Assembly: GCA_051362555.1 (NCBI GenBank) | Contig: CM120640.1 | Location: 47,036,788 to 47,100,787 of the forward strand | Length of the DNA: 64,000 nt | Direction of reading: 5' to 3' | From: Lingula anatina | Lineage: Eukaryota > Animalia > Brachiopoda | Shown: positions 2,818-63,111 of the stretch, one piece after another | How the letters are laid out: each line of letters opens with the position of its first letter | How positions within the stretch are numbered: position 1 is the first letter of the stretch | Translations under genes and position numbers: made by a program | Notes under the pieces: model-generated | The model's input: the letters and a program-made list of their open reading frames with translations, nothing else | Told to the model about the DNA's origin: nothing | Database searches by the model: none

Positions 2818-5800
2818 TTAGCCTATGTTCTTAATAGCAGTATTAAGTTGGGTCCACAATTCGCCCAGATCAGACTGGTAGGCGCCAACCACCTCCTTCA
2901 GCTCCTTCAACTTCTCTTCACCAGCTTCTTGAGTATGGTTAAGAACCTGGTAATAAACCGTGGGAATATAAATGTAATATATTGAAAAAAGCCGTGGAAA
3001 GTTATCCAGAAGATGTTATATTACGAGAATTAGCATGGCTAAGTGGGGAATGGTGTGGGATGCCTCTTGGACACTATAATCTGGCATGACTGCAGTATGA
3101 TGAATTAAATATAATAACAAATAAAAAAGTCTATGCTTAAAAGACCTAAGCTAGGACCTAACAATTCTTACATTATATTGGGTCCTAGACCTAAGCATAC
3201 ATGTGCATGTCTTCAGAATGATTCAAACAAGTACAAAGTTTACTTACGGTCGCAGTCATCAGCTTGATGTTATCCAAATGTCCTCTGGCTTCATCCACTC
3301 TAGCCCCAAGTTTGTCTTTGACAAATTTAGCAAGATCATCGTATTTACCCTTGAACTTTGCAAATACTGACTGCAAGCTGTCCACGAATTTAGCCCAAAG
3401 GGCTCTAGTTGCCCGTTTTCCTGAAAATATAAAAAAATGCAATTAAAAAAAGGAAATGGGGAAAATCACAGTTTTAGACAAGCTGCTTTGTTACCAGTTT
3501 TCCATTTTGTAATGAAAAATTTTTTTTTTTTTGGGGGGGGGGGGGGGGCGTTTAGATAGACCCGTTGATGGGCGTAGGATTTTTAGTGAGGTGCACGTGG
3601 GATGAGGATGGTGGATGTTCAAGGGTTATGCGTTTCAGGTTTAGAGACATTTTTAAGCTTTAAGAAACCAAGAGTTGGGCATTTTTTCAAAAAACTGCTG
3701 TGGTAGGAGCATTATTGATAGTTTCCTTACAGATGTGAATGGAGCAAATATTAAACTTCACATTTATTTTTGTAAATGTTGTCTTTTATTTATTTGTGCA
3801 ATTGCTAAAACAACGGCCATGTTTATATTGTTTTAAAATCTGAAATATATTGTAATTTTTCGGATTATTAAAATGGAAATAAAACTTGAAGATATGCCAA
3901 TCAAGTAAATACATTGTCACGAGTAAATCTACAAAACAAAAACCAAAACATACCGAAAATTCCCTTGAAAAACCCGAAAAACTTGTCAAACATAGATTTA
4001 AATGCTTTATAGAAGTTCTCTCTGATGCCCTGTAATTGTTGAAGAGTACTTTCAATGGCTTTCTTGGCGTCAGCTGTGAGTTTGCTAAGGATGTTCTTGG
4101 CGTCGTTGTAAGCTCCTTTGCCTTCTTCCTTCAACAGTTCGGTGTAGTTAGCGACATTCTGCAGCATGTCGTCAGTAACCTGAAGAAAGATCGATGTTAG
4201 ACGATCGATGCGATCATTTCTTAAAAGTATGTGTTGTTCCTTATTTGTTCTTTATAGACTAATAGTTAGCTGTTCTGAAAACATAAATTTAGGAATATGA
4301 AAATTTTATAGATTTATAATCAACAGTCAAAAAGGGAGAGCATAATGTTTTATAAGTCGCAGTAAAATGCGGTTAATTCACTTTTTTCTGTTGAAGTATA
4401 AATTTAAATGCTTATAAAAACAACTAGATACCTTAGCTCATAAAACAACAAAATATGTAAAACGTTAACAAAAAGTATACCTCGATAACTGAAAGTCAAT
4501 AGGTCGAAAGTGTTAAGATGTAAAAGTCGCATATGAATGTGTTTAGTTCATATTTTGTCTTAAAAACTAAATCCCACAGCGTGTCATGGCAAACACTTTG
4601 ATACCTTCTTTCCTTGTTCAACGGCGTTGTTTATTTGGTTAACAGTCGTCTGGAGAGCAGACTCCAAAGCCTTTCCCCACTCGGTCTGAACAGCACGAAG
4701 GACGCTGCAAAGCAAAATGTTTAAAACTGATAAAATACTTACCGCTTTTAATATTCATACGCCAATAACTTATCTATTTGATTATGTACAAAAACAGTTA
4801 AAAATACTTTATGAGGCGATAAACTCCAATCAACCCCTAGTCACTGGTCATATTAAAAAGATGATTAAGTCTGGCCCTTGTCATGCACGCCACCAAATTC
4901 GAGTAATGTCCAAAAATTCACGTAATTCCATATGTCAAAATAAATAAATAAAATAATAAAAGAAGAAGAAGAAAAATACTTACGCTTTCTTCTCTTCGTC
5001 CAAATCACGCTTGCTGATCTCCTCATCAAAAACGGATCTGAAAGCACGAACGGCAGCCTGGATCTCGTCCTCAGCAGCTGAAACATTACGATATATATAT
5101 TTTTGTGAAATATATGTAATATAAACCACGAACGGCAGCCTGGATCCTCAGCAGCTGAAACATTATGATATATGTAATACAGGGTAGTGTAGGCCTACAT
5201 CGAATGTAGTCACGAGTGGTGTATGCGTGTATCACATACCCATTTATTAAAAGTATAACTGCCGAAAATGAGTATAAAGGTGAATGCATGCACCTTTGAA
5301 ACAGACGCACAAGAAGATAAAAGTAAAAAGAAGCAGGGTAAAAAGAAGCAGGGTCGACATGCGATATACAAAGATTCTACTTGAAACATAACTTTATGTC
5401 TCTAATCCGACTTAAATAATAAGACGTGAGTATTAAAAGAATGGAATAAACTCAAGCATGGTGTTCGAAATATGGCCGATGACGGCCGCATTTATTGAAG
5501 GTCCCTCTAATAAAAGAAATGAAGCAGATAAGTGATAAACAATTAATAGTGTTGATTAATGATATTAACGTAACCAAACTTCCCTTGCATCTATAAAGGG
5601 CTATCGAGCATAAGACTGCATAGAATTTACTCGTCTTTGAAAAACTTACTTTGAATTCAATCGTCAAGATGCTGTATCCAAGTTTCAAGAGCGAACCTTT
5701 AATTAACATTTTAACTAACATTTTGTCTCATTCTGAGAGAAAACGCGTTCCCGGTTCAGGGGGTGGAGTACTTACATCCGGTCAGAGCAATTTGTTTGGC

Positions 5801-8639: not shown

Positions 8640-8743
8640 CTTGCTGCCCGTATGAATATATGGAGTGAATCACCACAGAATCTCATCGGTTTTTATAGTA
8701 TTACAGTGTGAGAGTGCGTGGTATGTGTCTTATCTTACGTGAC
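8640..8743 (-). promoter_or_regulatory. G1 core promoter and short non-coding exon 1
   Basis: TATAAAA at 8691-8697; GTAAG donor after 8640; GTCACGTAAGATAA at 8730-8743, shared with G2, G4 and G5. Confidence 0.65.
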
Positions 8744-12803: not shown

Positions 12804-15800
12804 TTAGTTTCCAGCTAAAGCAGCCTTAGTCTGAGCAATGGCATCCAGAAGCTGTTGCCACAAAACGCCCAGATCGGACTTGTAAGGAGCCGCAACCTGT
12901 TTAAGTTCCATAAGCTTGTCAAGACCGACCTGTTGAGGATGAGCTAGGACCTACAACATAATTTAACTTTGTTGTAAATATACATACAGACTTGACATTC
13001 TATTTCGTATAAAAATATCGGTCAGTCTTAAATGAGATATGCTTGCGCATGCGTACTCAGTTAGCTTGTGACATGCGGCTGGGTAGTCAGCCTGAAAATA
13101 GATGCGATCTATTTCTATCAGAATTATAATCTAAAACAAACGTAGTTTGTTTGCTTAAGTTGGAAACATTTTTGCAACGGAGTTGCAATCTTTTATGCGG
13201 CATATATATTGATCTGTAACGTAGTTACACATTGTAGGCTACGAATCATTTGTGTGCCAAACTTAATTTCAATATGGCGGCCGAAAGCACGTGTAGTGCT
13301 GTTTTACCGGGCCTTTCAAAACCCGCAATAGATACATGTAAGAATAGCGAGGACGTTAAAGCAAAGAAAGTAAAAACTAGAACAGGAAAGGGGAAACTAG
13401 ACGACAAAGCAAAATCTAGTCATAACAGTGATGAATATTTAACTATAATGAAAAATATACAAGGAACTGTGCAGAGACAGGAAACGAACATTAACAGCGT
13501 CGTGGGACGCATAGATACTTTAGAGAAACAGTACCTGTATCACGATGAATATTGTGAGGAGAATTATGACTTTGATGAACAGTATGATGAAAGATTGGAG
13601 GATGAAACATGCCCGGAGGCAGGTACTAGTAGCACAAACAGATTTGACGATATGACGAAGAGATATAAATTAATAGAGTATACAGACGTGGAAGTTGACA
13701 GTGTGTTGGCGAGTAGTGTCAATGATTTGTTCACCAATGGGATAGTAGATCATTCAAAGTATACAGAACTTACCAAAGATGAAAATAACTCACGGCCAAA
13801 AAACTGTGAAAGTTTGGTGATAGTCAAAACCAATAAAATGGTATGGAACATTATTCCTCAATATGCCAAAACAAATGATAAGAAGTTACAGGATGTTCAA
13901 ATGTCAGTTGTAAAAGCAGCTACGTTGATGACTAAAGGAATAGACAAACTGGCTAAGTTAGAAACAGGAAATGATACGAGTGAAGGGCTTGGAAAACTCA
14001 TTGATATGTTCAATGACAGTATTGCTTTGCTTGGTCATGCCAATACACAGATTAACTGTTTTAGAAAGGATTTGTTAAAACCAAACCTCAAGCCAGAGTA
14101 CAAACCTTTGTGCAATCATAACATTCCGTGCACAACTTTTCTCTTTGGAGATGATATTACCAAATCTGCAAGGGAAGTGGAAGATTCTGCGAAAATGAGT
14201 TATAAAATGATGCAGAGTAGAATGGGCTTGGATTATAGAAACCGCCCATACCAAAGGGGCCCACGATTCAGGGGACGCATGAGAGGAAGGTACAATCCTG
14301 GCCGAGGAAGTTCTTCCCAGAGGGGTGCACATGCAGATTCAAAAAACTTCTCATGGCAAAGCAGCCAGTGGGATCAGAACAGATACTAGAGGTGAGACAT
14401 AAATTTCAAGCTGGTAGATTGCATTTGTTTGTAGATGAATGGAGAAAATTGACCAGTGACCCATATATCTTGGATATAGTACAAAATTGTCATATAAATG
14501 TTGATACCAACATTGGATTTCAAAACTTAAATGATATGGTGAAATATAGGTTTAACACAGAAGAAACAATTATAATCAGGAAAGAAATTTCTAAACTACT
14601 TGATCTTGGTGTTATTAAGAAAGTTCAAAGTGTACCGGGGCAGTTTTTATCTCCTATTTTTGTACGCCCTAAAAAGAATGGAGAATACAGAATGATATTA
14701 AATCTTAAGAAGCTGAATCAACACATTCCCTATGAACATTTTAAAATGGACACTTTTGAAAAGGCATTGACCTTAGTGACAAAAGGATGCTTCCTAGCAT
14801 CAATTGATATAAAGCATGCATATTAAAGTGTGAAAATAGCAGAAGAACAGCAAATTCTTTTTCGATTTGTTTGGGAAGGAAATATCTATCAATACACATG
14901 CCTTGCAAATGGCATTTCTGAAGGGCCCAAAATATTTACGAAATTATTAAAGCCTGTATATGCAAAATTGAGAAGTCTTGGCCATTCTAGTTCAGGATTT
15001 ATTGATGACAGTTTATTGTGTTCAGATAATTACCTTGAGTGTGTTGAAAATATAAGATGCACAAAACATCTAATGGAAACACTTGGTTTTATAATCAATG
15101 CAGAAAAGTCTGTCCTTATTCCCCAACAATCATTGTTGTTTTTGGGAAATATAATTGATTCTGAAAGTATGACAGTGACTTTACCTAAAGATAAAATGGA
15201 TCACATTGTACAGCAGTGTAAAATGCTTATCATTAAAACAGAAGCAAAAGTAAGACTAGTAGCTAAAGTGATTGGAATTATAGTTTCAACATTCTCAGCT
15301 GTTGAATATGGTAAACTCCATTATAGAGAACTTGAAAAGCAGAAGATAAGTGCTTTAAAAAGCAACAATGGAAATTATGATGCTATGATGCACATGACAA
15401 TTAGTATGAAGCAAGAATTACAATGGTGGATGGAAAATGTCCACTTGCAAAGAAGGAAAATTGACAAAGGAAATGTTGACATTATATTGTATACTGATGC
15501 ATCCAAATTAGGCTGGGGTGCTCATTTGGAGGGTCAAAAAATTGGTGGTAGATGGTTTCCAGAAGAAGCTAACCTTCATATAAATGCTTTAGAGTTACTA
15601 GCAATATTATATGCATTGCAGTCTTTTACATTTAGATTTGAAAATAAACATGTAAAGATCATGAGTGATAATATTACAGCATGTGACTATATTCAGAATA
15701 TGGGTGGAATTAAATCTTATGATTGCAATAACATAGCAAAAAAGATTTGGCATTGGTGTATCGAGAAAAATGTTTGGCTCACCTGTGTCCATGTGCCAGG

Positions 15801-17582
15801 GAAAGATAATGTAGATGCTGATGATGCTTCTAGGAAGTTTAATGAACGTTTAGAATGGAAGTTGAATGAGAATGTATTTCAAAAGATATGTGAAAAATTT
15901 GGAAATCCATTTATTGATCTTTTTGCCTCTAGATTAAATGCGCAATTTGAAAGATACTGTTCATGGCAGGCAGACCCCTTTGCTTGGGGTATTAATGCAT
16001 TTACTTATGATTGGGGAACACTGAATTATGTTTATCTGTTTCCACCTTTCAGTTTGCTGGGTCATTGTATCCAGAAGATTCGCAAAGACAAAGCCAGGGG
16101 TATTATAGTGGCTCCTGTATGACCAACACAGATATGGTTTGCAAAGTTGATGGAATTACTTGTGGAAAACCCAATAGTCATTCAAAAGAAAAAAGGTCTG
16201 CTAACTTTACCAGGGAACAAGCTCCCAGTGGAACATCCTCTTATGGACAAGTTGAAACTCATTGTATGCAAAGTATCAGGGAACAGTTTAGAGAACGAGG
16301 CCTTTCTGAGCAATCAACCCACATACTTATGTCATCTTGGCGTACAGGGACAAAGAAACAATACAACGTGTTCATTAAACGCTGGTTCAAATACTGTGGT
16401 GAAAGGAAAATTAATTCAATTTCACCACATGTGGAAGAGGTGATAGAATTTCTTACAAAACAGTTTAATGATGGCTTAGCTTATGACAGTTTAAATACAG
16501 CAAGAGGTGCTATTTCATCAATGGGTATTCAAATTGATGGAGTTTCAGCAGGGAGTCATCCATTGGTGATAAGATATATGAAAGGCATTTATAATTTGAG
16601 GCCACCAAGACAATGTTATGCTCAAATTTGGGATGTTAATAAAGTTCTGGTTTTCTTAAGGAAACTTTCACCAGTAAAGCACTTGACTTTGAAGGATCTG
16701 ACTTTAAAACTTACAATGCTCATGGCATTAATTAATGCCACACGTGTACAAACATTGCATTTAATTTCTGTTGTTGATATGAAAAAGTTGAGTTCAGAGT
16801 TTGTGTTTCAGTTATGTGGTTTACTGAAGCAAAGTAGACCAGGTTGTAATTCATCACATATTGTGTTTAAAGCTTACCCTCCAGATAGGAGGTTGTGTGT
16901 TTATACTGTTTTAAAAGAGTATATAGCTCGTACAAAGACATTGCGTAGGCATAATGTTGATAAAAATTTGCTTATAAGTTATATGAAACCTTATAAACCT
17001 GTTCAAAGAGATACGATTTCTAGATGGATCAAAGTTGTAATGACAAAATCGGGAATAGACACTACTTTATTTGGTGCTCACAGTGTGAGAGCTGCTGCTG
17101 TTTCAAAGGCAAAAATGAATTCTGTGCCAGTGACAGATATTTTGAACAAAGCTGGTTGGAGTACTGAAAAAACATTTGCAAAATTCTATGAGAAACAAAT
17201 CGAGGATAAAGCTACCACATTTGAATATGGAGTTTTAAAAAGGAAGTAATGAGCATATTCATATACTAGTATATACTGGCATGTATACGTTTACATGAGT
17301 ATCTGTTGATGATTTGTTGAAACTGTTCTAAACGATATTTTAAGCTGAAATAAAGGCCATTGAATACTGGTTTATTGATGTTTGTCACATTTTACTTTAA
17401 AGTCTCATTTAAGACTGACCGATATTTTTATACGAAATAGAATTTAAAATTAAACGAGACTTACCTTGGTTAAGTCGATGTTTGATTGTAATTCTGTGAG
17501 TGTAAAAATGAGGGAGGGCTTAAATGCCACCCTCCCCACCCAGCTTACTCAGTAATATAATTCCAATGTAATCAGCTCACAG

Positions 17583-17626
<44 letters not shown>

Positions 17627-19601
17627 CATAATACTACTAATAGATAAATAAATAAAAATGTTCTTTAAAAAAATGTGAAAACATCAAGCTTTAAAGGCTG
17701 AGTACGCATGCGCAAGCATATCTCATTTAAGCCCTCCCTCATTTTTACACTCACAGAATTACAATCAAACATCGACTTAACCAAGGTAAGTCTCGTTTAA
17801 TTTTAAATTTTATATTGAATATTTCAGTTTCAAAGGTATGCTAGGTAAAATGCGTTCTTTAAAAAAAAAAACTCCGATGTCATATAAGAAATGTGAATGG
17901 AGAAATGTGTAGTCAGATGTGTCGCTACCAATTAACTGACTGCTGCATTGTGTTATATGCAGTGATTTGTTTGGGTAGTGCTCCTTTGGGCTGGGCAAGC
18001 TTGGCTTTGGCGAGGCATGGTTCTGTCAAAAAATATACATATATCGGCAACTACTGTACAGAAGAATTTGAAATTTTGCATGCAAGAGGTTGGTTTTGCA
18101 GTGCATAAATTGAGATAAGCAGTGTTTTACAAAATTGTTAACCTATGGAAGAATGGCGCAAAAAAGACAGGCATTGCCAGACAGATTATTGTGCTAAACG
18201 GAACACTCCGTACAGTTTTATAGAGTTATGCCCAGACTAATGTACCTACACGGAGGCCAAACCCAACGTATCGAAATCTTACCCCCAGGGTACAGGACTC
18301 ACTGTCCTTCCGGATATGCTGATGCAACTAAACAAAAACCACCCAGTCCGTTCAGAATGAGGGGCAAATTTCCACCAGAACGCTTTTTCAAGGCCCTAAG
18401 CGAACACCAAACTGGTTTTAGCAGGTTAGAATACCAGACGACGTCAGCGGAAGCCACTGTAAACAGTAATACATCATCGTCTGTTTCTCTAATGGATTGG
18501 GGACCATGACCGTTTCTGGGTAGAACACTGAAACCGAGTAGCTGTCTTTATGAGGTCAGATTTCACCTATACCGCTCAACTATTATGGTCAGATTTCACC
18601 TGTAACGTTCAACTAGTCAAAACAGATTTTACAGACAGCCAGAAGAGGCCTACGATGAAGTGTGTGCCGCGCCTTAAGTGACTAGGGTCACAGACAGCGT
18701 CAGTATTTGGAGTGGATACCACAATGGTGCCAAATCACAAACGGTAGTCATGGATGAAAACCTGAACCAGATCAAATAAAGGAATATCTCGGAACCACTT
18801 GACTATCATTTGATAGGGGGCACCTTAGAAACAATTTTAAGTTGCACAATGTCAGTTCACAAAGGGCACTTTTAATAGAAGATAACTTACAGAACCAAGG
18901 GAATGAGCAGCTACCTTGGTCATCAAATCCGCCATATTTGAACCACACAGACAATATTTGGGTAGTAATTACTAGCCGAATAACTGGCCTACATGTACTA
19001 CAACAAAACTGAACCAAACTGGATATTTTGACCTATGCCTGGAATGTTATTCCAGATTAGACTCCAAAAACCTATCCCGAATAATGCCTTGCCGCTTTAG
19101 AGCCCTGGCAGCAGCCAGATGAGGTCAGGCGTAACGGCTACTGTTGCTGTGACTAGACATTGACATGAGGGTCATTTGTGGGACGTGTAACCATTTTACA
19201 CCCCATTTGGAAAATATGGAAATCCAAAATGTCGCTTTTAATGGTTGTCGTACGACTTAGAATATAGGCAATGCATTTTTGTTTGCTTCATTGGCGAATT
19301 CAATTAATGAACTGATGTCACAATGACATCAAAGAGATTATTAAAAGTTATTAAAACACGAATTGAATTCCTATTTTCATTTTTCAGTCAGCAAAACAGG
19401 AAAAAAACTGATGAAAAATGATATGGAAAAAACATCCCATATTAAATGTCAAGTCTGCAATTCGGGCAATGTTTTATATCAGTTAATCAAATTACAGAAT
19501 TTACTTACGGTAGTGATCAAAAGTTTGATGTTTTCAAGATGTGCTTGATTCAGGGCCTCAGCAAGCTTCTCCTGCACGTATGTTTTAAAGTCAACAGCTG
19601 A

Positions 19602-19674
<73 letters not shown>

Positions 19675-22600
19675 CAAACAGCAGCACGAATCTCCCCAGC
19701 AGCTGAAACACTATGATATAGAAATGTAACATAAAGCACGAACGGCAGCCTGGATCTTGTCCTCAGCAGTAGTGCAAACAATGAATCAATAAAAAGTTTA
19801 AACAACATATATGGAAGATTGGAGACAAAATGACCAGCAATTGCTGTTGGATATATGATACAATTATGTGAAGGTAAGAGCGTAAACGAAGAAGATGAAG
19901 ATATATTGCGTTTCATACTTTTTTACCTTTTAGTTATTTTTAGATGCACAAGTCAATGCCATTTACTTAATCCAAATGCATTTGCTACAGCTTTTGATTT
20001 ACGTGGTTTGTACTTAATCCATTGTCATCTTCGCCCCCATGAGACCCAATTAATAAATTAGGTTATTTTTTATAGAAAAAAATTACCATCTTTGCTTTAA
20101 GCACACATAGTTAGGTTATTCTTTGTCGTATTCTTTGTCGTATCTCGAAAAAGCCAGACAACAATGATTTCTTAATCTCCATAACGAGCCTCTGCGCGTA
20201 ATGTCGACTTTGTACATTTTAGTCATTGCTTGTCAACTACATAACTCTAGATTACAAAACTTTCTCATTTGTCTCGAATTAACTAGTACTCTCCGTGTTC
20301 AAAGGCGCGTACTTGGGAGTACAGGGGGTGGGGTAAATCTGGGCAAGACAATGTGCTTTCTGTTGTAGGCAGCCTGCACCACCTGGGTCCACAGACTTCC
20401 AAGATCCTGCTTGTAAGGCTCCAAGAACTCCAGAAGTTCCTTAGTGACGGCAAGGCTAGCATCCTTGGCGTGGGCAAGGTACTGAAAGTGACATATTTTG
20501 TGAGTATACTTTATGTATCATGCACATGTGCTGAAGACATAATATTTTGTACTTGTAAGAAATCCCGAAAACGTAACAAGCAACGAAGGTTAAGCTAACT
20601 TACAAGCAATTCAAGAAGCTTAAAATAACCAACACATCATTGCATAAGTTGTGCAACTACAATTTTGTTACACGAGACAATCCATAATGAAATACACGTA
20701 CACCAAATGTCTGACACTGAAAAAAATTAGCAGTGTTTTTACCAACCATTACACAGTTGAAATGTGTGCTCAATTTTTTCAAATAATTTTTCATTACCTC
20801 TTGGGCAATAAGTTTGACGTTGTCGAAGTGTCCCTTGACTTTGCCCCACAGATCTCCAGCGTACTGCTTGATGAAGACTTGGAGATCAGCGAACTTGGAG
20901 GTGAATCCTCCCAGAGCCTGTGACAAAGTGTCCTTCACTCCCTGCCACCATTCAGCTACACCACGGTCAGCCAGAACCAGTGCCACGGTCTGATAATAAA
21001 TACAAACGATACAAATATAGGTTAAAAAATCTAATTCATCCAACTATTTCATGCACCCTAAGGCGGCGACATGGTACCAGAAAAAATATATCAACTAATA
21101 TAGGGAGAGTTTTGATTGTCATACTTAAGTATAAAAACTAAGTCTTGCCTTCTATGACTTTTTGTTAATGGAAGTATCCTCATAACATGAAACTGAATTG
21201 ATATGATGCCGACAGATTGACGGTCTTACCTCATTTAAAAGTTCTTCTTCGAAGTTTTCAAACAAATCACGCTTGCCTGAAAAAAAAAAGATGATATAAG
21301 GAAATGCACATTGAACTTTGCAAACTGACTTACACAAAGATGACATAAAGAAATGCACATTTTCACTCATTCTCAGTATACATGTATAGGTCCATTGAAG
21401 AAAACAGAAAAGTGCATATTTTACTTTTTCTAAATCTCTGATGACAGAAAGTGATAAATCTAGGATGTTTTAATAACTGTAAAAATCATGCCGTAGTAGT
21501 ATTGGGACGAAGTGACGAAGGTTTAGCCTATTTTGGTAACGAAAGTTTTAAAATAACCACCCTTTTGGATAATATTTACACGTTATTAATAGTAACAAAA
21601 ATATAGGGGTATTACGAGATGCACATTTACTTTATATTTACTTACTTTTTGTCCTCAACCTTAAGTTAATTTTTACTCAATGCCTTGTATCGAAGGTTTT
21701 GCAAATTACTTTCTACGAAAATGCAGCTTTGCCGTGTTACATCTAAAGTGACTGCGTCACGTCACCATATTCTCTTACTTATAATGAATAAAACTAAATT
21801 GAAGATTTTATTAACGGCTAAATGTTACAAAATACATAAGGCAACTGAAAGTAATGAAATTAGACACCATACTCGCTTCCTGACAAGTTGAAGATTTTCT
21901 TCTATAGTAAAAATGAACTAGATCGACTGGAGAGAAATGGTTCTGCAAGTGACTGTAAGGAAGATTTAAAATTGAGTATGTTTATGTTGTTTATGTGAGA
22001 ATAGATAAAGCTAGTGATTTTTATCGTATTTTTAAGTTCCTAGACTCATTTTAGCTTAAGACGAAAAACTAATTCAACAATCATGAAGTTGTTTCGTACC
22101 GAAAACACCCACGTTCTTTTCAAAAATGTATTTTAACTGTGCTTTGATTTCATTAAGGTGATTTTTAAGAGATACAAGTAGGTCCAAGGTGGTCAAATTT
22201 CGTAGAAGGGCAGGATGGGCTTCCAACCAGTGCTTGCCGCCCAATTGTTTCAGTGCCTCTAACAACTGATTTGACTGCTCTAGCAGAGCCTTGCTGACCT
22301 AAAGAAAGGGAATTAGACATGAATAGTTTCTGATTTATATTCAGACATTTCGATTATGATGTGTTATCATCGCCAGTTTTATTAAATAAGATTATTGCAA
22401 AAAAAAAACAGTATTTAAATCAGATAAAAAAAGTGTTGAAAGGTAATTCACATTTAACCGTCAATGTCATTCCAAAAATGTCATATCAAATTGCTTCTGC
22501 CGCTGTATTTGGGGCGGTTGATGAGTCTGTATCATGTACGACAAACATCAGTCCTTCATAAAACGTCACCAGTAGCAAATGCAAAGTATCCTAAGACAAT

Positions 22601-23515
22601 TTCAATTTAATTTAAACATATTCTATTCTACGTATTCTACTTCTATGATTCACATTGAAAGCATATCAATATCATCTGCGTCATGGACTTAAAATGAAAT
22701 CCCCATCCTTAATTTAGTACTTTAGTATATTAATAATGTAAAAGAAATCACTGACCGTGCGGCCGGTTGCCACAAGATTTTTGATTTTGTCTGTGACGTT
22801 CTTCAGTTTCTCCTCCAGTACCTGGGACAGGACAGTCTGGGTGGCTCTCGTAAGGCTTTTACAAGTGTCAAATATTAAACTAAACAACTTATTTAACACA
22901 ATTGTCCTACTTCAAGTTTTCAATCAATAACACTTGAATTATTTTTAAAATATTAGACTGAAATACAACGCTCTCCTGAAAATCACCTCTGCTTTGAAGT
23001 TAAAATAGTTAACTTTTACTGTAGATACAATAAGTTCAAATTCGTTATTAACAACTATAATTTTCAGTTGTTAAATTTTTGTAAGGAATACCGCTGCCAA
23101 TTGTGTTTGTGCAACGTTACCCGCCCCTGTTGATGACATCCAGCTGCAAACTTTATTCTAAAAACTGTATCTGTCTTAAATCTCTGGTACTTACGGGTTG
23201 GTTTCGCGGACATGGCGTGGAGAATTGACTTCGTTCACGAGAGATGCAATCTCATTGTCCAGATTCACTAATGGCATGAATCCAAAACCAATAAAATTCT
23301 ATGTAACTAATATTTATACTAACACATCAGTGTTTTATGCCCAAAGAATTGTTTGTTAAAATGAAGAAAAGATAAGTTCAAACTGTATTCAGATAAAGCT
23401 GAACAAATCCAATCGAAATACTTGCAAATAATGTAAAAGTATTCCACTTACGGCGGACAAAATCAGCCTGTGCTCCAATGAAGATGCCGACAAATACGAA
23501 GGCCAAAAATTTCAT
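12804..23515 (-). CDS. G2: paralog lacking module A2 and the N-half of B2 (in-frame deletion), 9 coding exons, 359 aa; last intron holds nested transposons
   Basis: Exons 23515-23452, 23267-23195, 22855-22756, 22298-22100, 21276-21230, 20989-20798, 20481-20313, 19597-19509, 12950-12804. GT..AG boundaries; 1080 nt open from MKFLAFVFVGIFIGAQA to ...TKAALAGN*. Confidence 0.75.
13274..14389 (+). CDS. DIRS Gag-like protein (ORF1)
   Basis: Intact ORF (first ATG 13274; ORF track from 13250) with RPKNC..L...KTN..VW, D.KLQ..Q, LLGHAN, LFGDD motifs and an RG-rich tail; lies upstream of and overlaps pol. Confidence 0.85.
   Translation: MAAESTCSAVLPGLSKPAIDTCKNSEDVKAKKVKTRTGKGKLDDKAKSSHNSDEYLTIMKNIQGTVQRQETNINSVVGRIDTLEKQYLYHDEYCEENYDFDEQYDERLEDETCPEAGTSSTNRFDDMTKRYKLIEYTDVEVDSVLASSVNDLFTNGIVDHSKYTELTKDENNSRPKNCESLVIVKTNKMVWNIIPQYAKTNDKKLQDVQMSVVKAATLMTKGIDKLAKLETGNDTSEGLGKLIDMFNDSIALLGHANTQINCFRKDLLKPNLKPEYKPLCNHNIPCTTFLFGDDITKSAREVEDSAKMSYKMMQSRMGLDYRNRPYQRGPRFRGRMRGRYNPGRGSSSQRGAHADSKNFSWQSSQWDQNRY
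14353..16443 (+). pseudogene. DIRS pol (reverse transcriptase, RNase H, DNA N6-adenine-methyltransferase-like domain) with two premature stops
   Basis: ORFs 14353-14826, 14830-16122 and 16147-16443 share one frame. Motifs: SPIFVRPKKNG, ILNLKKLN, IDIKHAY, GFIDD; TDAS, HINALE, SDN; DLFASRLN, YLFPPF. Stops TAA 14824-14826 and TGA 16120-16122 (the latter at the W of AP.WP.Q.W). Confidence 0.9.
16011..17249 (+). CDS. DIRS tyrosine recombinase (probable start ATG ~16266)
   Basis: Intact ORF with YR motifs R (ATRVQT), HSVR, AGW and TFAKFY; overlaps the 3' end of pol in another frame. Confidence 0.9.
   Translation: MGNTELCLSVSTFQFAGSLYPEDSQRQSQGYYSGSCMTNTDMVCKVDGITCGKPNSHSKEKRSANFTREQAPSGTSSYGQVETHCMQSIREQFRERGLSEQSTHILMSSWRTGTKKQYNVFIKRWFKYCGERKINSISPHVEEVIEFLTKQFNDGLAYDSLNTARGAISSMGIQIDGVSAGSHPLVIRYMKGIYNLRPPRQCYAQIWDVNKVLVFLRKLSPVKHLTLKDLTLKLTMLMALINATRVQTLHLISVVDMKKLSSEFVFQLCGLLKQSRPGCNSSHIVFKAYPPDRRLCVYTVLKEYIARTKTLRRHNVDKNLLISYMKPYKPVQRDTISRWIKVVMTKSGIDTTLFGAHSVRAAAVSKAKMNSVPVTDILNKAGWSTEKTFAKFYEKQIEDKATTFEYGVLKRK
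17403..17526 (+). repeat. DIRS internal complementary region (ICR)
   Basis: First part is the reverse complement of the left terminus (~12997-13037), second part of the right terminus (~17724-17809), joined through a single AAT. Confidence 0.92.
19605..19670. repeat. (TA)n microsatellite; others at ~17589-17623, 37784-37830, 45861-45900
   Basis: Read directly. Confidence 0.9.
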
Positions 23516-26956: not shown

Positions 26957-26990
<34 letters not shown>

Positions 26991-29804: not shown

Positions 29805-30694
29805 TTAGTATCCAGGTAAAGCAGCCTTAGCCTGAGCAATGGCATCCAGAAGCTGTTGCCACAAATCCCCCAGATCGGACTTGTAAGGAGCCACAACCTG
29901 TTTAAGTTCCTCGAGCTTGTCAAGACCGGCCTGTTGAGCATTTTGTAGGGCCTAGAACATAATATAAACGTTATTGTAAATATATTAATATTGCAATTCG
30001 AACAATGTTTTATATCAGTATATAACCAAATTACAGAAATTTACTCACTGTTGTGGTCATCAGTTTGATGTTTTCAAGATGTCCTCTGGTCTGGTTCAGA
30101 GCCTCACCAGCCTTCTCCGTCACGTATGCTACAAGGTCAGCATATTTCACCTTGAGGTTGTCCAATACATCTTGTAAGGTGTCTTTTACTTTCGCCCACC
30201 AATCTCGAAGTCCTCTCTTGCCTTTGAAAAATGATAGCAGATGAAATATGCATATAATCATATAATGTGAAGTAGATAACTTATTGCATTACCACAATGA
30301 TATTCACATTGGAGTAAGTTAACCGTCAAATATTCTGCTTTATGAGAAACATACACCGAAATCAGAAAAAAAAAGATCTTTAAAGATGCATTTGAACGAC
30401 TTGGCATGTCAAATCTTTGCTCTGAAGAAATACTACAGGTTATCGCTTGTGTCATATAGATAAGCTATTGGAAAAATTAGCAAAAAGACTCTGGAGTCCT
30501 TTGAAGAAATTGTCGGCAAGATCCTTGAAAGCAGCGGTGAACTTGTCCTTCAGGCCACTAAGAGACTTGAGGCCGTCCTTGGCCTGGGCAGTGAGGGCAC
30601 TCAGAATCTGCTTGACGTCGGTGTATGTTTGGGCTCCCTGCTGCTTCAACAACTCGGTGTAGTTGGCAACCTTCTCCAGCATCTCACTGGTGAC
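29805..30694 (-). pseudogene. G3: 5'-truncated paralog with only the last three exons
   Basis: Exons 30694-30481 (donor mutated to CT, 12 nt deletion), 30221-30049, 29951-29805. No upstream exons or TATA box found between ~30800 and ~34530, where homology to the far-upstream region resumes. Confidence 0.8.
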
Positions 30695-35170: not shown

Positions 35171-35179
35171 GCACTTTTA

Positions 35180-41478: not shown

Positions 41479-44400
41479 TTAGTATCCAGGTAAAGCAGCC
41501 TTAGTCTGAGCAATGGCATCCAGAAGCTGTTGCCACAAATCCCCCAGATCGGACTTGTAAGGAGCCACAACCTGTTTAAGTTCCTCGAGCTTGTCAAGAC
41601 CGGCCTGTTGAGCATTTTGTAGGACCTAGAATATGATATAAACTTTGCTGTAAATATACATATACTGAAATTTTAACAACGTTCTATATCAGTATATAAC
41701 CAAATTACAGAACTTTACTTACGGTTGTGGTCATAAGTTTGATGTTTTCAAGATGTCCTTTGGTCTGGTTCACAGCGTCACCAAGCTTCTCCTGCACGTA
41801 TGCTACAAGGTCAGCATGTTTCACCTTGAGGTTGTTCAATACGTCATTTAAGGTGTCTTTTACTTTCGCCCACCAATCTCGAAGTCCTCTCTTGCCTTTT
41901 AAAAACGATAGCGGATGGAATGTGCATATAATCGTATAAATACAATAATATTCATATTGGATTAATTTTAGCATCAAATCTCCCGCTTTATGAGAAAATT
42001 ATACAAATTGCACGTGTATCAGTAATGCGTCATACATTACGTTATTTGGCGGATTTTTACGAACTGGAGAGAGGATAAGTACCTGTACGTCAAGTTCGAA
42101 AAAGGTACAGCTTCTTTTCTTTTCTTAACTAAACAAACCGTCATTTCAGAATATCAAATGACTTGGAAAACTTACCAAAAAGACTCTGGAGTCCCTTGAA
42201 GAAATTGTCGGCAAGATCCTTGAAAGCAGCGGTGAACTTGTCCTTCAGGCCACTTAGGGACTTAAGGCCGTCTTCAATGGCTTGCTTGGCTTGGGCAGTG
42301 AGGGCACCTAGAATCTGGTCTGATTCACGGCTTCACCAAGCTTTCCCTTCACGTATGCTACAAGGTTAGTATATTTCCCCTTGAAGCTTTTCATTACATC
42401 ACCCAATGTGTCTTTTACTTTCGCCCACCAATCTAGAAGTCCTCTCTTGCCTTTGAAAAATGATAGCACATGAAATTTATACATACAATAGTATAACGCT
42501 TAAGCAGATAACTTATTTTATAACCACAATGATATTCATAGTGGATTCATTTTACCATCAAATCACCGGCTTTTTGAGATAGGCCTACTTATACTGAAAT
42601 TTTAAAAAGATGTTTACAAATCCATTTAAAGCGAGTTGAAATTTGAACAGATCGTGTATTTTTTTTTCTGTGCTAAATATAACCCTCGGTCTTTTTCGCC
42701 AAGCCCCATTTAAATAATTATGCAATAGCGCGTGTAGTTGGCAACCTTGGTGACCTAAATTTTAAATAAGAAAAAAAGAATCAATTAAATTCAATGATCA
42801 CCATTTCATAATTAGCAGATTATCATTTTATTATTTACCAATAATTAATGTTCCGAATCCATATTCCATTTAAAAAAGCAAGAAAATGATCCATTGTGAT
42901 ACGCAATTGGCCAAATCAACTTATAAAATTGATAAATGTTATCCATTTGAAGATACACGAATGAGACCAATGGAATCCACCCACTGAAATCAAAGATAAG
43001 TAAGAAAAACTGAATAGAAAAACTGATAGTAAAAAGAACATTAGAATTAAAAAGGCTCTCTGTGTGTCATCTCCCCGTCACTTTTTGTCCAATATAACAA
43101 AACTTCACGGCAGTATCCCCCATACCTTCTGTTCATGGGCCACGGCAGAGTTAACCTGTTCTACGGCCTCCAAAGACTTTCCAAACTCAGTCTGGGCAGC
43201 GCGGAGGACACTTGGATTAGAAAATAGCACCTTGCAATAGGCATAAATCGGTGTGACGTTCCAAATATAGCTTACCTTAAGATGAGCAATAATAATATTC
43301 CTACAGTTTTTTTTTACCATGTCAGCGCTAGTCAGCGACTTTAAAAACATGCGTAGAACGTGTAAACGATCAAAACGATTATCATATCTGGGAATCGATA
43401 AGTAGTCACTTACGCTCTCTTCTCCTCGTCCAAATCACGCTTGATTTCCTCATCAAAAACAGACCTGAAAGCACGAACTGCAGTCTGGATCTCGCCCTCA
43501 ACAATAGCAGCAGCTGAAACATTGTGATATATATAAATATATACGTAATATATAAACCACGTCCTCAGCAGCTGAAACGGTGCGAATAATAAATCAATAA
43601 AAAGATAAAACGATATCTATGGAAGATTGGAGAAAAAACGAACAGCGATTACTGTTAGATATGTGACATGAGCATGTTGAGGTGAGTGTTTTGACGAAGA
43701 AGATGAAGATAGATTGATTTTGCGTTTATTACTTTTGGCTCTTTTTTAGATGCGCAAGTCAATGCCATTTACTTTATCCAAATCCATTTGCTACAATTTT
43801 TAATTCGTCTGGTTCGAACTAAATCCATTGTCATCCTCGCCACCTTGAGACCTCGTGCGCAGTGTCAAAATTCAATACAGATTATGTGTTTATTCATTGC
43901 ATATCGATATTTGTAAATACATATTCTATGAATCAAAAATAAATTATATTATTTTTTATAGAAAAAAAATGCCATCTTTGCTTTAAGCACACAAATAAAT
44001 TAATGTGAAGAATCGAATGGACAGAAAGCAGTCAGAGGTGGTTCACTCTTATTACAACGTAAAACGTATGTTTTTTAACAATTTATTTGTTATTTCATTA
44101 TTCTTTTCCTTATTTCGAAATACCAAACCACAATGATTTCTTTGTGGATCGGAGTGTTTCTTTCGGGGCGGATAAGTGGCAAAATTTTCTATTAGAAAGT
44201 ATGCTGATTGCGCCGCGTCACGTTGCATCGAAACTTTTCTTTTGGCGGACGGTCGTACAACTGTAGTTTCCCCTCTTTGTTTATTTCAGAAGATTGCGCC
44301 AAAATGTATTTCTAGATAATGGATAATTTTCATGTTTTTTTCCGGATTTATTCAAGTCAATGACATTAGCGCGTTATGTCAAATCGTTCGTTTTTCATGC

Positions 44401-45858
44401 ATAATATAAATGCTTTAAACATTTTATTTCTTATAATTGCTCACCACCTACATAACTCTTGTTTTCAAAATTCGCTCATTTGTCACAAATTAACTTGCAC
44501 TGTCCGTGTTTATCAATAAGATTAAAGAGGCGTAGTTGGGGGTACAGAGGGTGGAGTAGATCCGGTCAAGACAATGTGCTTGACGTTGTAGGCAGCCTGC
44601 ACCACCTGGGTCCACAGACTTCCGAGATCCTGCTTGTAAGGCTCCAAGAACTCCAGAAGTTCCTTGGTGGCGGCAAGGCTAGCATCCTTGGCGTGGGCAA
44701 GGTACTGAAAGTGACAGATTTTGTATTGATTGAAGGTTACTTATGCTGTAGAGTTACTATATTTCATGCGCATGTGCTGAAGACATAATATTCTGCACTT
44801 GTAAGAAATTCCGAAAACGTAGCAACAAAAGTTAAACTAAATTACAAGCAATTTTAAGTCTTAGTTAAAAGAGGCTAAAAATAGGCACATCATTGCAAGT
44901 TGTGCAACTAGAGTTTTGTTACACGAAACAAACCATGCTGAAATACACATACACCAAATGTCTGGCACTGAAAAAATTAGCTTTTTTTTTTTAAACTATT
45001 ACGCAGACGAAAAGTGTGTTCGAATTTTTCAAATAATTATTCATTACCTCTTGGGCGATGAGCTTGACGTTGTCGAAGTGTCCCTTAACTTTGCCCCACA
45101 GATCTCCAGCGAACTGTTTGACGAAGACTTGAAGGTCAGCGAACTTGGAGCTGAAACCTCCCAGAACCTGAGAAAAGGTGTCCTTCACTCCCTGCCACCA
45201 TTCAGCTACACCACGGTCAGCCAGAACCAGTGCCACAGTCTGATGGTATATACAAAACGATACTGTTTTCGGTAAAGAACCAATTCAGCCAAATAAATTG
45301 CACGCACCCTAAACCGGCAACGTGATACCATGGCAGAAGTAAATATCAACTAATCAAGAGAGTGTTTTGATCGTTAGACTTAAGAATGTAAAACCTAAGT
45401 CTTACCTTCTATAACCCCCTTAGTAAAAGTACCTTAACAATTTAAAACAGAGCTGATTTGATGCCGACAAATTGACGTTCTTACCTCATCCAAAAGTTCT
45501 TCTTCGAAGTTTTCGAACAAATCACGCTTGCCTGAAAATAAACAAAGATGAAGTAAAAAATGCACATTGAACTTTGCCAACTGAGTTTTCAAAAAGCTCT
45601 GTAATTCAACGAAATTTCACTTCATATGACTAAAAGGCTTTGATTCCGGTGTAACGTGTAAGTTCCCCATGATAGGGTGTCCGCTTCCCATTCATTTGCA
45701 CAGGTAAGCCTCGCCTAAGATTTTGACCCACATAGGTCAGATGTCCATTATAACTAAATGGAGGGCGGACTTTCTGTTACACGGACCCTCAGTTTCGTTA
45801 CATCCGGCGCGTTTGACACAATGGCTTTGATAATGGTCACAAAGCTGCAATATGATAG

Positions 45859-45902
<44 letters not shown>

Positions 45903-48042
45903 AAGTTCAGAAACGCCAAGTACCAATAAAGAGCCTTGTACTAAAATGAAATGTGATCCACCGAACAGCATGTTCTTTGTTTTAAGAATTTGCACTTCAC
46001 AAATGGTCTTAATAGAATTTGCTTGTCTCATCTTATGGTGCCGTATTGTATGCGGTCTTGCTAAGACAGCATAAACACACCGATTTGCTATATGCATTCG
46101 ATCTCAACTTTACAGATAATGCATATTTCAAACGATAAATAAACATTTAAGATACAGTAAATAAGTATTTGATTCGTACCGAAAAGACCACCGAACATGT
46201 CCAATAAGCCTTGGAACCAGCCAGAAAATTGGCTCTTCAGTGTGCTAAGGATAGCCTTGGCGTCGGTCAGGTACTTGCCGCCCATTTCTTTAAGTTGATC
46301 TGCAATCTGCTTAGCCTGCTCTAGCAGGCCCTTGCCGACCTAGAAAAGAAGGCCAATTTGAGATGAAACATTTCTATCCAGTCAAAATTCAAAATACGTC
46401 ACAAGCAGCAAATGCATAGTGTCTTTAGATATTTTTTATCGAACTTAGATTTAAAGAATATGAATATTGTCTGGCTCATGGACTTAAAATGAAATCAGAT
46501 GTCCTTACTTTTGTACTTCTGAACATTGATAACGTAAAAAAAATCTCATACCACGTGACCGGTTGCCACAAGACTGTTGATTTTATCTGTGATATTCTTC
46601 AGTTTCCCCTCCAGTACCTGACCCAGGACAGTCTGGGTGGCTGTTGTGAGGCTATAACAAGTATCAATTCTTAATACTAAACATTTAATTTAACGCACAG
46701 GCCTTGTTTTATGATTTTCAATTAAATACGCTTTAAAATAATTGAAAGATTAGACTTATATCCAACCAAACAGCTGCTCAAAGCACTTCCCCGCTATGAA
46801 AATTAATTCAAAATTCTGTAAACACCAAATTAAAATAGCTACAATTAAAACCCAACAACTTTCCATTAATTTCACTTTCCATTTATTTCTTTTTATTTTT
46901 ATCCGGACTACCGTTTATATTTGAGCATGGAATGTTTATGGCATCTAGCTACAACCACTAGAACGCGTAAGAGCAGGTTGAATATCAAACTTCTGCCGTA
47001 CCAGCACGAAAAATCAATGCGACAGCACGTTTTTATGCGTTACGGGCTCGGCACTGAACGGTCGCAACGGTACTAACATTGATGGTCCTCATAATAATGC
47101 ATCTGTCTTAAATTTCTGGTACTTACGGGTTGGCTTCGCGGACATGGCGTGGAGAATTGACTTCGTTCACGAGAGCCGCAATCTCATTGTCCAGATTCAC
47201 TAATTACATAAATCAAAAACCAATTAAATTGCAATTGTGTTACTAACACATCAGTGCTTTACTGCCAAAGAATTGTTTATTAAAATGAGGAAAAGCTAAC
47301 AAGTATAAAATGATGAGAAAAAGTAGTTTAATCAGATACATCTAATGCTGAACAAATCTACAGGGTTACTACTTAATATGGAATAACTGCCCTGGCCTGC
47401 AAACTCCCCAGATATGAGCCCAATTAAAATCTGTGGGCGGAAGTAACTCACAGAATTAATAGCTATGGTCATCGACCGGTAAATAGTGATGAACTGCGAC
47501 AGGCAAATATCACTGCGTGGAATGGAATCCCCATCCAAACTCTAAAAAAACTTGTCACAGGGTATGCCATGTAGGATGAGGGCGCTGCGAGCGGCTGCTG
47601 GAGGTCATACCCGCTATTGATGACTTTCATGATTTACTGTAATGAGTTCGTTGACTGTGTAACGTATCACTGTCCGGAGGCTATCATTTTCTTTAATATC
47701 TTAGCTTAAAATTAATACTGACATCGAACTGTTGATATGGTTTTCTGGGGGTGTTCTTTTCTTTTGAATGACATCTTATGTCAGATTTGATATTATTGAC
47801 AAAAATATCTCACAACAGAAGACTGGATATTTTTTATCACTCAGTGACATACTTTTTTGATGAATCAAGCCAAAAAAATTATTAATCAGCGCTCAAATAA
47901 AAAACATTCCCTATTAAGTAGTAACCCTGTACATTGTAACCTTAATACTTGCAAGTAATGTAAAACTCATCTACTTACGGCGGACAAAATCAGCCTGTGC
48001 AACAACGAAGGTGGCGACGAGTACGAAGGCCAAAAACTTCAT
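41479..48042 (-). pseudogene. G4: rearranged chimeric paralog, probable pseudogene
   Basis: Exons 48042-47979, 47199-47127, 46651-46552, 46339-46180, 45531-45485, 45239-45048, 44704-44536 (donor GT>CT), 43513-43414, 43210-43126 (15 nt deletion), truncated exon 42754-~42732, extra B2 exon copy 42450-42314 fused out of frame to the A2 exon 3' half (to 42176), then 41895-41723, 41625-41479. Confidence 0.8.
47361..47929 (+). mobile_element. Internally deleted Tc1/mariner element in a G4 intron
   Basis: 24 bp TIR CAGGGTTACTACTTAATA(T/G)GGAAT, TA flanks, transposase C-terminal relic LPWPANSPDMSPI...MPCRMRALRAAAGGHTRY*; absent from the same intron of G2 and G5. Confidence 0.85.
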
Positions 48043-54746: not shown

Positions 54747-54777
<31 letters not shown>

Positions 54778-57058: not shown

Positions 57059-57105
<47 letters not shown>

Positions 57106-58196: not shown

Positions 58197-58298
58197 CTCC
58201 TAGTTGTTGTGGTGCTAATGTGGACGAACGGTATCCAACGTCGGTTTTTATAGCCTTAGCTTATGGGAGTGTGCGGTCTGCTTCTTATCTTACGTGAC
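58197..58298 (-). promoter_or_regulatory. G5 core promoter and non-coding exon 1
   Basis: TATAAAA 58246-58252; GTCACGTAAGATAA 58285-58298; GTGAG donor after 58197. Confidence 0.65.
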
Positions 58299-60896: not shown

Positions 60897-63111
60897 TTAG
60901 AAGGTTGGAGGAGGGGTGGAACCAGTGAGGACGATATGTTTAGCGTTGTAGGCAGCCTGAACAACCTGGGTCCAAAGATCTCCCAAATCCTGTTTGTATG
61001 GCTCCAAGAACTCCAACAGCTGCTTGGTGGCGGCAAGGCTGGCGTTCTGGGCATGTCCGATGTACTAAAAGTATAATGAAATATTTGATTAACCTGCTTT
61101 CAACAATTGAACAATTACATAATGGTTTTTACAGGTCAATTGGAACAATTGGCTTGCATTGTGAAATGTTTGTTATATGTGTCTAAAATTTTAAAAAATC
61201 ATGAACAGTGCAAGTCAAATTATTATGCTTACAGGTCAATCTCCAAAACACACGTGCGAAACGAAAATGACAGAACAGTGCAATCTCTATCCAGTTCCAT
61301 TAGGTTGAACAATACCACACAATAATTTTGAAATTTTAGAAAAATCAGTTTACCTCTTGGGCAATAAGTTTGACGTTGTCGAAGTGTCCCTTAACTTTGC
61401 CCCACAGATCTCCAGCGTATTGCTTGATGAAGACTTGGAGGTCGGCGAACTTGGAGGTGAATCCTCCCAGAGCCTGTGACAAAGTGTCCTTCACTCCCTG
61501 CCACCATTCAGCTACACCACGGTCAGCCAGAACCAGTGCCACAGTCTGCATAAGAATGGTATGTGAAGTTTACATGAAAAACGACGATCGAACACCTGCC
61601 ACTTTGATACTTAAAATCAAACATTATTTGGCTTAAATGCATTTTACTATTCAAGCTAGAAAATATGACAATATTATCTATGATATTTTAAAGGTTTATG
61701 GAAAATGCAAATGTTAGTGTACATAAAGAGGGAGAATAAAAAAGAGAAAAATTTTACTTCATCCAAAAGTTCCTCTTCAAAGTTCTCGAACAGATCACGT
61801 TTGCCTAAAAGTGCATAAAATATACAACACATTAATAACTGTAGCCCAGTAGCGGATTTAAGGGGGGGGGTGTCAGAGGGGCCCTGACTGCTTGATGAAG
61901 CGACAGGCACAGTAACAGGCTTTACATGCGCAGATCCCCATCCCCCCTTCAAATAATCTTAGATCCTCCCCTGGTAACCGTACCGAGTAATCAAAATTAC
62001 TCCATACTAGAAGATATTTTGTTTGCACTAGCCTTCTTGCCCATTTAGCATTTATTTGCATACTGAAGCCAAAATGTAAAAGAACACTAACTAGACAGTA
62101 CAGCTCACCCTGAGCTTCAGACATAACTTGACACTAACCTCTTCACTATAGCCTATCTAACTTGACATGATGAAGATAGGCTAAAGTGAAAAGGTTAGTG
62201 TCAAGTTATCTCTGAAGCTCAGGGTGGTACAGCTAAGCTCGCAAAAAAATCGAAAATTAACATCAAAATCCCATAACTAAATTTTAACTAATTGGCACAT
62301 TTAACTAAACAATAAATTTTGTAAAAGTAATGAAATTAAACCGATCGTGCCGATTTTCAAAAGGAAGCTGACTTTCTACTGAACTAACCACCGAACTAAA
62401 TTTCAGGTAAACAGGTGAACAATGGATGTGTTGGACGACAACAGACAGACACAACAACCAGAATGTATACTGACACGTACAGTGTCTGTATGTAATGTGA
62501 CCGCAATAAAGTTGGTGGACTCTACATTACAAAGATCACAGCTTACCAAACAGACCGCCAAAAGAGTCAAGGATACCCTGGAAAAAGCCAGAGAATTGGT
62601 CCTTGAGACTGCCCAGGATGGCTTTGGCGTCGGTAACATATTTGCCGCCCATTTCCTTCAGTTGCGCGGTCAGGGTCTTGGCCTGTTCCAGAAGAGCTTT
62701 TCCCACCTAGAAAAAATGAAAATCTTTATGCCTTGATGAGATAACATTAACTCACTGCACGCCGTTACATACAATAAGTGGCTTGATTTACCAAAGAATA
62801 ATAATGAATAATAAAATGTTGTTATGAACAAAGATGAAGTGTTTTTTATGTGTAAATCTTCATCTGATACCTCTAATACTTTACAACATTATCCCATGTT
62901 TATATATTCTGTATATTCTGTATGTAATATTATGTATTTAAAAAGGTAGAAATATCTTGTCGGTAATTATTCCAATTCTTAGTTATAATTCATAAACGTT
63001 GATATTCTCACAGAGTGACCAGTGGACAACAGGTTGTTGATTTTGTCGGTAACATTCTTCAACTTCTCCTCCAGAGTTTGTCCCAGGGCGGTGGTGGTAG
63101 CTCTCTCGAGA
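60897..63111 (-). CDS. G6: half-size single A-B unit paralog; 5' exons presumably beyond the window end
   Basis: Exons 63111-63012, 62706-62547, 61804-61758, 61545-61354, 61064-60897; open and GT..AG; ends ...IVLTGSTPPPTF*; AATAAA at 60863-60868; no A2/B2 exons downstream. Confidence 0.85.
61847..61973. mobile_element. Short MITE-like insertion in a G6 intron
   Basis: Imperfect TIRs CAGTAGCGGATTTAAG / CTTAGATCCTCCCCTG with inner G and C runs. Confidence 0.45.
62106..62226. mobile_element. 121 bp foldback MITE with 8 bp TSD
   Basis: ~53 bp inverted arms (CACCCTGAGCTTCAGA...); GTACAGCT at 62098-62105 and 62227-62234. Confidence 0.88.

Follow-up and report, generated by a model that had tools for sequence, protein, structure and literature searches.

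Exchangeable apolipoproteins are known from vertebrates. Apolipophorin III is a single five-helix bundle of ~165 amino acid residues (aa) that undergoes no internal cleavage. The precursors of scorpion non-disulfide-bridged, frog-skin, and tunicate antimicrobial peptides combine a signal peptide, a Cys-free amphipathic peptide, a Gly-Lys-Arg signal (G-KR), and an acidic spacer; once mature, these peptides are short and cationic, and they evolve fast. The available part of PMC9138557 gives apolipophorin III as the insect example of exchangeable apolipoproteins and as an invertebrate, secreted, exchangeable helical lipid binder. Group-3 LEA proteins are described, in the available part of PMC10808001, as having 3–11 amphipathic helices whose interface carries positive residues, as binding membranes, and as sharing apolipoprotein-like motifs; the helices are weakly hydrophobic and disordered. 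Here, we analyzed a 64,000-nucleotide stretch of Lingula anatina DNA (contig CM120640.1; the whole stretch is called the window), which carries six tandem loci (G1–G6) for predicted secreted precursors built from two types of amphipathic helical module, A and B. This is a real, selected, and spliced cluster of an unnamed family that is spread across protostomes. We propose that the modules, made together in one polyprotein, bind lipids in the manner of exchangeable apolipoproteins, a function for which belief and doubt are evenly balanced.

The exons of the family were all found on the minus strand in six-frame motif searches of the window. The original prediction, made from the sequence of the window before any database search, had counted six genes of a four-module polyprotein. 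All six loci are there, but the intact 12-exon four-module form is limited to two of them, G1 and G5; G2, G4, and G6 have the A-B form, and of G3 only an orphan 3′ fragment is present. The prediction overcounted the intact genes and missed the breadth of the family beyond the cluster. For G1 and G5 it was accurate: the spliced precursors (492 and 517 aa, all introns GT-AG) have the order signal-pro-A1-B1-A2-B2 and no Cys, and the G1 modules A1, B1, A2, and B2 are exactly 86, 99, 109, and 97 aa long, as claimed. In full, the G1 layout is signal-pro-A1-spacer-B1-linker-A2-B2. The motifs RHIR/RHVR, GKR, ADR, RAFR, SKR, and EKK/EKR, the A and B signatures, and the N(V/I)T and NYT sequons were all present, although the sequons were not general across relatives when compared by eye. 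The G1 and G5 proteins are identical at 323/488 positions. The intron phases 1-2-0-1 of exons 2–4 recur in exons 8–10, and exons 3 and 9 are 100 nt each; therefore, the 3′ half is a copy of the 5′ half. Directly before the ATG lies an acceptor-like TTTCAG, suggestive of a first exon that is non-coding.

Reads of four RNA runs, chosen by species label, were mapped to G1 alone. Run X1 gave 71 reads on G1, nearly all of them exonic and on the sense strand, with spliced joints at introns 6, 9, 10, and 11 (6, 3, 6, and 5 reads, respectively). Because 46 of the 71 reads were only 90–95% identical to G1, they come from an allele or a close paralogue. Runs X4, X7, and X8 gave no coverage of the G1 exons, apart from a single stray read in X7 and another in X8. 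In X1, three reads joined exon 7 to exon 8 via the donor that G5 uses. Two separate genes (A1B1 and A2B2) were considered and rejected, as no signal-peptide exon was matched before exon 8 and these three reads join exons 7 and 8. In the window, G1 lacks this exon-7 donor (5753–5776, minus strand), and an alternative in-frame GT donor lies 23 nt upstream. Splice-donor turnover has taken place at exon 7 of G1, and since the window copy of G1 is without the donor seen in the reads, we infer G1's own splicing at this exon. Read-through of the G5 exon-7 donor would yield a 272-aa A1-B1 form. Such read-through (54970–54984, 44522, and 60897, minus strand) runs through a Pro-rich tail into a stop, and in G4, G5, and G6 an AATAAA follows closely. 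Intronic polyadenylation may decide between the short and long forms.

The same genes or close paralogues are present among the RefSeq proteins of L. anatina (LOC106166856, 857, 861, and 863, and LOC106174647). G1 was identical to XP_013400982 at 238/253 positions, G5 to XP_013400975 at 300/303, G4 to XP_013400977 at 272/272, and G6 to the LOC106166861 protein at 102/102; the RefSeq model of G5 likewise splices exon 7 to exon 8. A search with G5 exon 6 returned two L. anatina RefSeq proteins, both "uncharacterized". All the RefSeq counterparts bear this name, and the models seen (150–319 aa) differ from the window genes in that none has the full four modules. The ratio of nonsynonymous to synonymous substitution rates (dN/dS) was 0.20 for G1-G5 over 492 codons, 0.09 for G5-G6, 0.24 for G5-G4, and 0.50 for G5-G2. 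The intact paralogues (0.09–0.24) are under purifying selection.

A profile of three Lingula proteins was searched against 1.84 billion proteins at E ≤ 0.001 and found 88 relatives. In a control with 85 of these, the median score was 50.7 bits forward and 4.5 bits reversed, and since none of the 85 reversed sequences reached the cut, a composition artefact was ruled out. Of 20 relatives looked up, seven are labelled with a species: Liolophura (chiton), Tachypleus (horseshoe crab), Araneus (spider), Lineus and Tubulanus (nemerteans), Halotydeus (mite), and Patella (limpet). All seven are unnamed proteins, and these mollusc, nemertean, and chelicerate relatives exclude an orphan family of Lingula only. 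The other 13 are encoded on short contigs of 0.9–2.7 kb that barely exceed the open reading frame (ORF). The range may be wider, because these 13 are without an organism label and the remaining relatives lie beyond the 20. A signal-like hydrophobic stretch was counted, crudely, in 54/72 Met-initiated relatives, and 71/83 relatives contain at most one Cys. The architecture seen most often is AB (41 of 76 Met-initiated proteins); B-only, B4, B6, AAB, and ABAAB also exist, with some of the B-only rows being fragments, so that a fixed A:B ratio, as originally predicted, does not hold as a family rule. In a tree of 92 B modules and 103 columns, from which near-duplicates and the control protein P0063 were left out, Lingula B1 and B2 formed one clade (98/93). 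The four-module form therefore arose in the Lingula lineage, and in the chiton and Lineus proteins the modules were duplicated independently. A word-indexed search gave no match for G5 exon 10 and only six proteins for the A2 alignment. In the ESM Atlas, P0012 matched one unnamed 58-member cluster with Rotifera as its commonest taxon, at 0.79, which we take only as a lead; P0002 had no match there. Members from metagenome collections (P0013, P0023, and P0096) are of animal type and were automatically named phage-related, PIP family, or DUF883, likely by misannotation.

This distribution bears on whether the chains are structural helical proteins of the shell, chaetae, egg coat, or an adhesive. 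They are predicted to be secreted, and are Cys-free, modular, and repeated, and the available part of PMC4595640 reports lineage-specific helical Ala-rich proteins in Lingula shells. The family, however, occurs in shell-less nemerteans and in chelicerates, and none of the RefSeq accessions of the cluster is among the 54 Lingula shell proteins in the available 2026 list (PMC13425148). Neither the available supplements of PMC4595640, whose shell set counts 65 proteins, nor those of PMC7333891, a study of limpet mucus, gave a match to the family motifs, although these files may lack sequences. A structural role is highly improbable.

The border sites of the modules point to proteolytic release. 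Family-wide, KR, RR, or RxxR was found directly before B in 40/81 modules and after A in 37/72, compared to 32/816 interior 14-mers, i.e., about 50% at module borders vs a 4% background; before A it was found in 12/69. The windows for these counts were set from profile coordinates, and single-Arg sites are missed by them. This supports the predicted secreted precursor of amphipathic helical modules, which by the established convertase rules is likely cleaved by furin-type convertases. The ADR before Lingula B1 aligns with SKR, ARR, and EKR of relatives and so looks like a worn cleavage site. Since this site fits neither KR nor RxxR, the release of A1, A2, and B2 can be predicted with more certainty than that of B1. 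The G-KR amidation signal of the original prediction is present in Lingula, but G-[K/R]-R was found in just 11 of the 46 best relatives counted; amidation is therefore not general in the family. Of note, the spacer of the family member P0010 encloses a short Gly-rich peptide in two identical copies, each bordered by G-KR or G-RR, in the manner of an amidated neuropeptide embedded in the precursor.

Net charges of the eight G1 and G5 modules ranged from −1 to +2. The family medians were 0 for B (n = 83) and +1 for A (n = 73), and a net charge of +5 or more was found in 3/83 B and 11/73 A modules. The hydrophobic moments of the eight Lingula modules exceeded those of shuffled sequences (z 1.6–6.2). 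When the hydrophobic face was defined from apolar residues only, the mean angle from this face was 104° for Lys/Arg and 148° for Asp/Glu (permutation p = 2e-4). The gap between the acidic and basic residues was 43° in Lingula and 38° in the family, vs 8° (confidence interval −4 to 21) in 26 soluble proteins of E. coli. This arrangement, which places Lys/Arg at the helix interface and Asp/Glu in the centre of the polar face, is the class A layout of the exchangeable apolipoproteins, under the definition attributed to Segrest 1992. The class A layout was found in both the Lingula modules and the family.

These values bear on the first of the two functions put forward in the original prediction, in which A and B form a one- or two-component membrane-damaging secretion for defence or offence. 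The prepro-polyprotein layout, the acidic spacers, G-KR after A1 and A2, the aromatic amphipathic termini, and a tandem cluster with gene birth and death would all suit such a secretion. Its modules, however, are not cationic, and acidic residues fill the polar centre. Defence peptides show fast sequence change, unlike the dN/dS values here. The purifying selection, the small share of relatives with G-[K/R]-R, the A:B ratio that varies across the family, and the lack of any toxin or antimicrobial family at cut-off likewise speak against it. The proposed analogy with acidic spacers that flank cationic peptides fails, because the modules are near-neutral and of class A layout, with dN/dS of 0.09–0.24. 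We consider membrane damage quite unlikely. Of the two functions predicted for the cluster, the apolipoprotein-like one is favoured, as near-neutral class A modules under purifying selection would fit lipid coating better than cationic killing.

The B modules showed self-similarity peaks at lags of 11, 22, 33, and 44, i.e., an 11/3 beat, with a hydrophobic period of 98.5°. An amphipathic 11-residue beat would also suit proteins that act as bulk surfactants or protectants in a secretion of the gut or in mucus, which shield enzymes and membranes like group-3 LEA proteins and form no transport particles. The 3–11 helices and apolipoprotein-like motifs of group-3 LEA proteins (available part of PMC10808001) and the transcript-like contigs of 0.9–2.7 kb that carry all 13 relatives without a species name agree with this, and the available part of PMC5553785 offers a lead: in the digestive fluid of the spider Stegodyphus, about 40% consists of three unknown "LEA-like" proteins, which are candidate members of the family. 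LEA families were not matched by P0001 or P0002, nor were they among the best 25 of the 85 Pfam families matched by 36 members. The modules, with 13% Leu and 9% Phe+Trp+Tyr, are rich in Leu, Phe, and Trp, in contrast to the weakly hydrophobic LEA helices (available part of PMC10808001). Protective proteins of this kind are an unlikely explanation.

Returning to the apolipoprotein-like function, similarity to known families was weak throughout. No Pfam family reached its cut-off for the cluster or family proteins, in line with the original prediction, which had recognised no family. PF01442 (apolipoprotein A1/A4/E) was the Pfam family matched by most members (22/36 at E ≤ 0.01; best E 7.3e-9). 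Apolipophorin III (PF07464) was weakly matched in 8/36 members and by the PDB profile at E 0.06–0.11; P0002 had no match to it. NCBIfam gave scattered coiled-coil-type matches. When G5 exon 12 alone was searched against the PDB, apolipoprotein A-I filled the first 10 of 18 rows (E 0.009–0.09), and the exon aligns with one apoA-I helix at its Pro-Tyr and Trp-Gln positions. Among the 88 relatives, no apolipoproteins were recognised by eye. AlphaFold with 3 sequences gave a predicted local distance difference test (pLDDT) of 38, which was unusable. With 36 sequences, the model was all-helical (mean pLDDT 65, predicted template modelling score 0.34), and residues ~200–257, at the end of B, formed three short helices at pLDDT 95–97 that hold the three most conserved columns. 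Foldseek gave no match at E ≤ 0.001 and the best VIA match had a Z of 9.8, to generic bundles, with the B core barely tried alone. An A1+B1 complex prediction run without an alignment scored 0.01, which we read neither for nor against a complex.

Several observations weigh against lipid binding of the apolipoprotein type. P0002 scored 34.4 bits vs the curated PF01442 cut-off of 90, whereas the unrelated P0063 passes the PF01442 and ApoLp-III cut-offs. This 2,863-aa protein is a tape-measure-like false hit (reversed score 23 bits) and was used as a control; it shows the class A layout too (31°). As it passes both, neither the Pfam match nor the charge layout is specific. The PDB profile search ranked a phage tape-measure protein and a designed bundle above apoA-IV. 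The A modules beat at 18/5, not 11/3, and the modules (86–109 aa) contain 0–2 Pro each, so that Pro-punctuated 22-mer repeats are absent. The helices with which A1 and A2 close are rich in aromatic residues and capped by Gly-Lys-Arg, and we take them to resemble lytic peptides. The most conserved part, a predicted compact three-helix knot, could be a protein-binding domain instead. In addition, the reads came from only one of the four runs and were mostly 90–95% alike. Given the sub-cut-off scores, P0063, the outranked PDB match, and the missing 22-mers, the data support a protein that works like an exchangeable apolipoprotein, but not one that is a member of that family; descent from vertebrate apolipoproteins is unproven.

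In the mechanism that we propose for lipid binding, the predicted secreted, Cys-free precursors are likely cut by furin-type convertases into helical A and B chains of ~100 residues. The free chains would open onto phospholipid or neutral-lipid surfaces and coat the lipid, which might give lipoprotein-like particles or fat emulsified in the coelomic fluid or gut. The conserved three-helix end of B may form the folded core, or else be where a receptor or an enzyme binds. The ancestral unit was A-B, which Lingula doubled internally before tandem gene duplication, with most tandem copies reverting to, or decaying towards, the A-B form. A bolder version, which we regard as a long shot, is that the family represents the exchangeable-apolipoprotein system of non-insect protostomes, so far overlooked and dating back at least to the lophotrochozoan/chelicerate split, made as a convertase-cut polyprotein with two cooperating lipid-coating chains, and that the end of B shares an ancestral helix with vertebrate apoA-I/A-IV/E. 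If this homology were true, apolipoproteins of the high-density lipoprotein type would be pushed back to the first bilaterians.

The coordinates of the cluster are collected in Table 1.

Table 1. Features of the module gene cluster in the window, with positions counted from its first nucleotide.
Feature	Position	Strand	Description
TATA-like box	8691..8697	-	~290–306 nt 5′ of ATG; same position in G1, G2, G4, G5
G1	8391-2818	-	12 coding exons
G1 coding exons 1–6	8391-8328, 7961-7889, 7603-7504, 7278-7131, 6724-6678, 6297-6118	-	
G1 coding exons 7–12	5920-5776, 5077-4984, 4704-4605, 4179-3954, 3420-3248, 2946-2818	-	
G2 5′ half	20299..23515	-	7 GT-AG exons, 285-aa intact A1-B1 ORF
G2 3′ half, decayed	12804..19772	-	exon-8 remnant 19772-19733, exon-11 fragment 19596-19509, exon 12 12950-12804
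DIRS-like retrotransposon	12997..17443	+	inside last intron of G2
G3	29805..30694	-	orphan exons 10–12; exon 10 internally deleted, without splice donor
G4 5′ half	44522..48042	-	7 GT-AG exons, 272-aa intact A1-B1 ORF, Pro-rich tail
G4 3′ half, rearranged	41479..43513	-	exons 8–9 with deletions, truncated exon 10, chimeric exon 11/10, then exons 11–12
G5	57962-52108	-	12 exons, four-module precursor
G6	60897..63111	-	exons 3–7, A1-B1, then stop

The remaining four loci are truncated, rearranged, or decayed. In G2, an unrelated stretch takes the place of the second half of A1; this in-frame replacement (second half of exon 4; 22100–22234, minus strand) has no other good copy in the window. Exons 9–10 of G2 were not found by exon searches of the window. 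The ORFs of the DIRS-like element are gag-like, reverse transcriptase/RNase H/adenine-methylase-like, and tyrosine-recombinase-like, the recombinase match being weak (E 0.011). The insertion is probably young, because its ORFs are long and its 41-bp inverted ends are identical; more inverted copies of its left end lie at 17698–17731. For G3, no exons 1–9 were found between 31 and 41 kb, and tandem arrays of 161-bp and 338-bp units (35179–35650 and 36033–37191) occupy the place where its 5′ exons would be expected. Exon 7 of G4 has no splice donor. Exons 11–12 of G4 sit in a 1,864-bp block that is 97.7% identical to the 3′ end of G5, which could be due to recent conversion or to an assembly artefact. 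Near-identical blocks with exons 10–12 were seen at 40454–42317 and 51089–52946 (97.7%) and at 28978–30265 (about 90%), a pattern pointing to recent unequal crossing-over or misassembly. Exons 8–12 of G6 are absent downstream, and its exons 1–2 were not found inside the window. A Tc1/mariner transposase remnant with helix-turn-helix and DDE matches (49816–50809, minus strand) lies between G4 and G5.

No published description of the family was found in a search that left out most subscription papers, and the B-motif strings matched no paper. The family motifs had no match in the available supplements of PMC13425148, PMC5553785, PMC12164160, and PMC8557429 either, files that again may lack sequences. 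Whatever its function, a conserved and wide-ranging animal family for which neither a Pfam model nor a paper was found deserves a name, and the conserved three-helix end of B offers a search profile ready for use. For a lipid-coating role in molluscs, brachiopods, nemerteans, and chelicerates, the family supplies named candidate genes in each group. A polyprotein that releases apolipoprotein-like chains would, if true, be a new way of making them.

Compared to the described systems, the family is unlike group-3 LEA proteins in being rich in Leu and aromatic residues, in the conserved, predicted folded end of B, and in its cleavage sites. With the scorpion, frog, and tunicate antimicrobial precursors it shares the prepro layout, the basic cleavage sites, and the acidic spacers, but not the ~100-aa neutral modules and the purifying selection. 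Its modular precursor with internal basic sites is also unlike the uncut single bundle of apolipophorin III. From vertebrate apolipoproteins it differs as a polyprotein with two module types between convertase sites and 7–12 coding exons, by the lack of Pro-punctuated 22-mers, and by scores below the Pfam cut-off. Vertebrate exchangeable apolipoproteins have a signal peptide and a short propeptide and lie in a tandem gene cluster, and both features are common to the Lingula family. It further resembles A-I, A-IV, and E in its Cys-poor, near-neutral class A helices, in the 11-residue beat of B, and in the weak matches to PF01442 and to apoA-I/A-IV.

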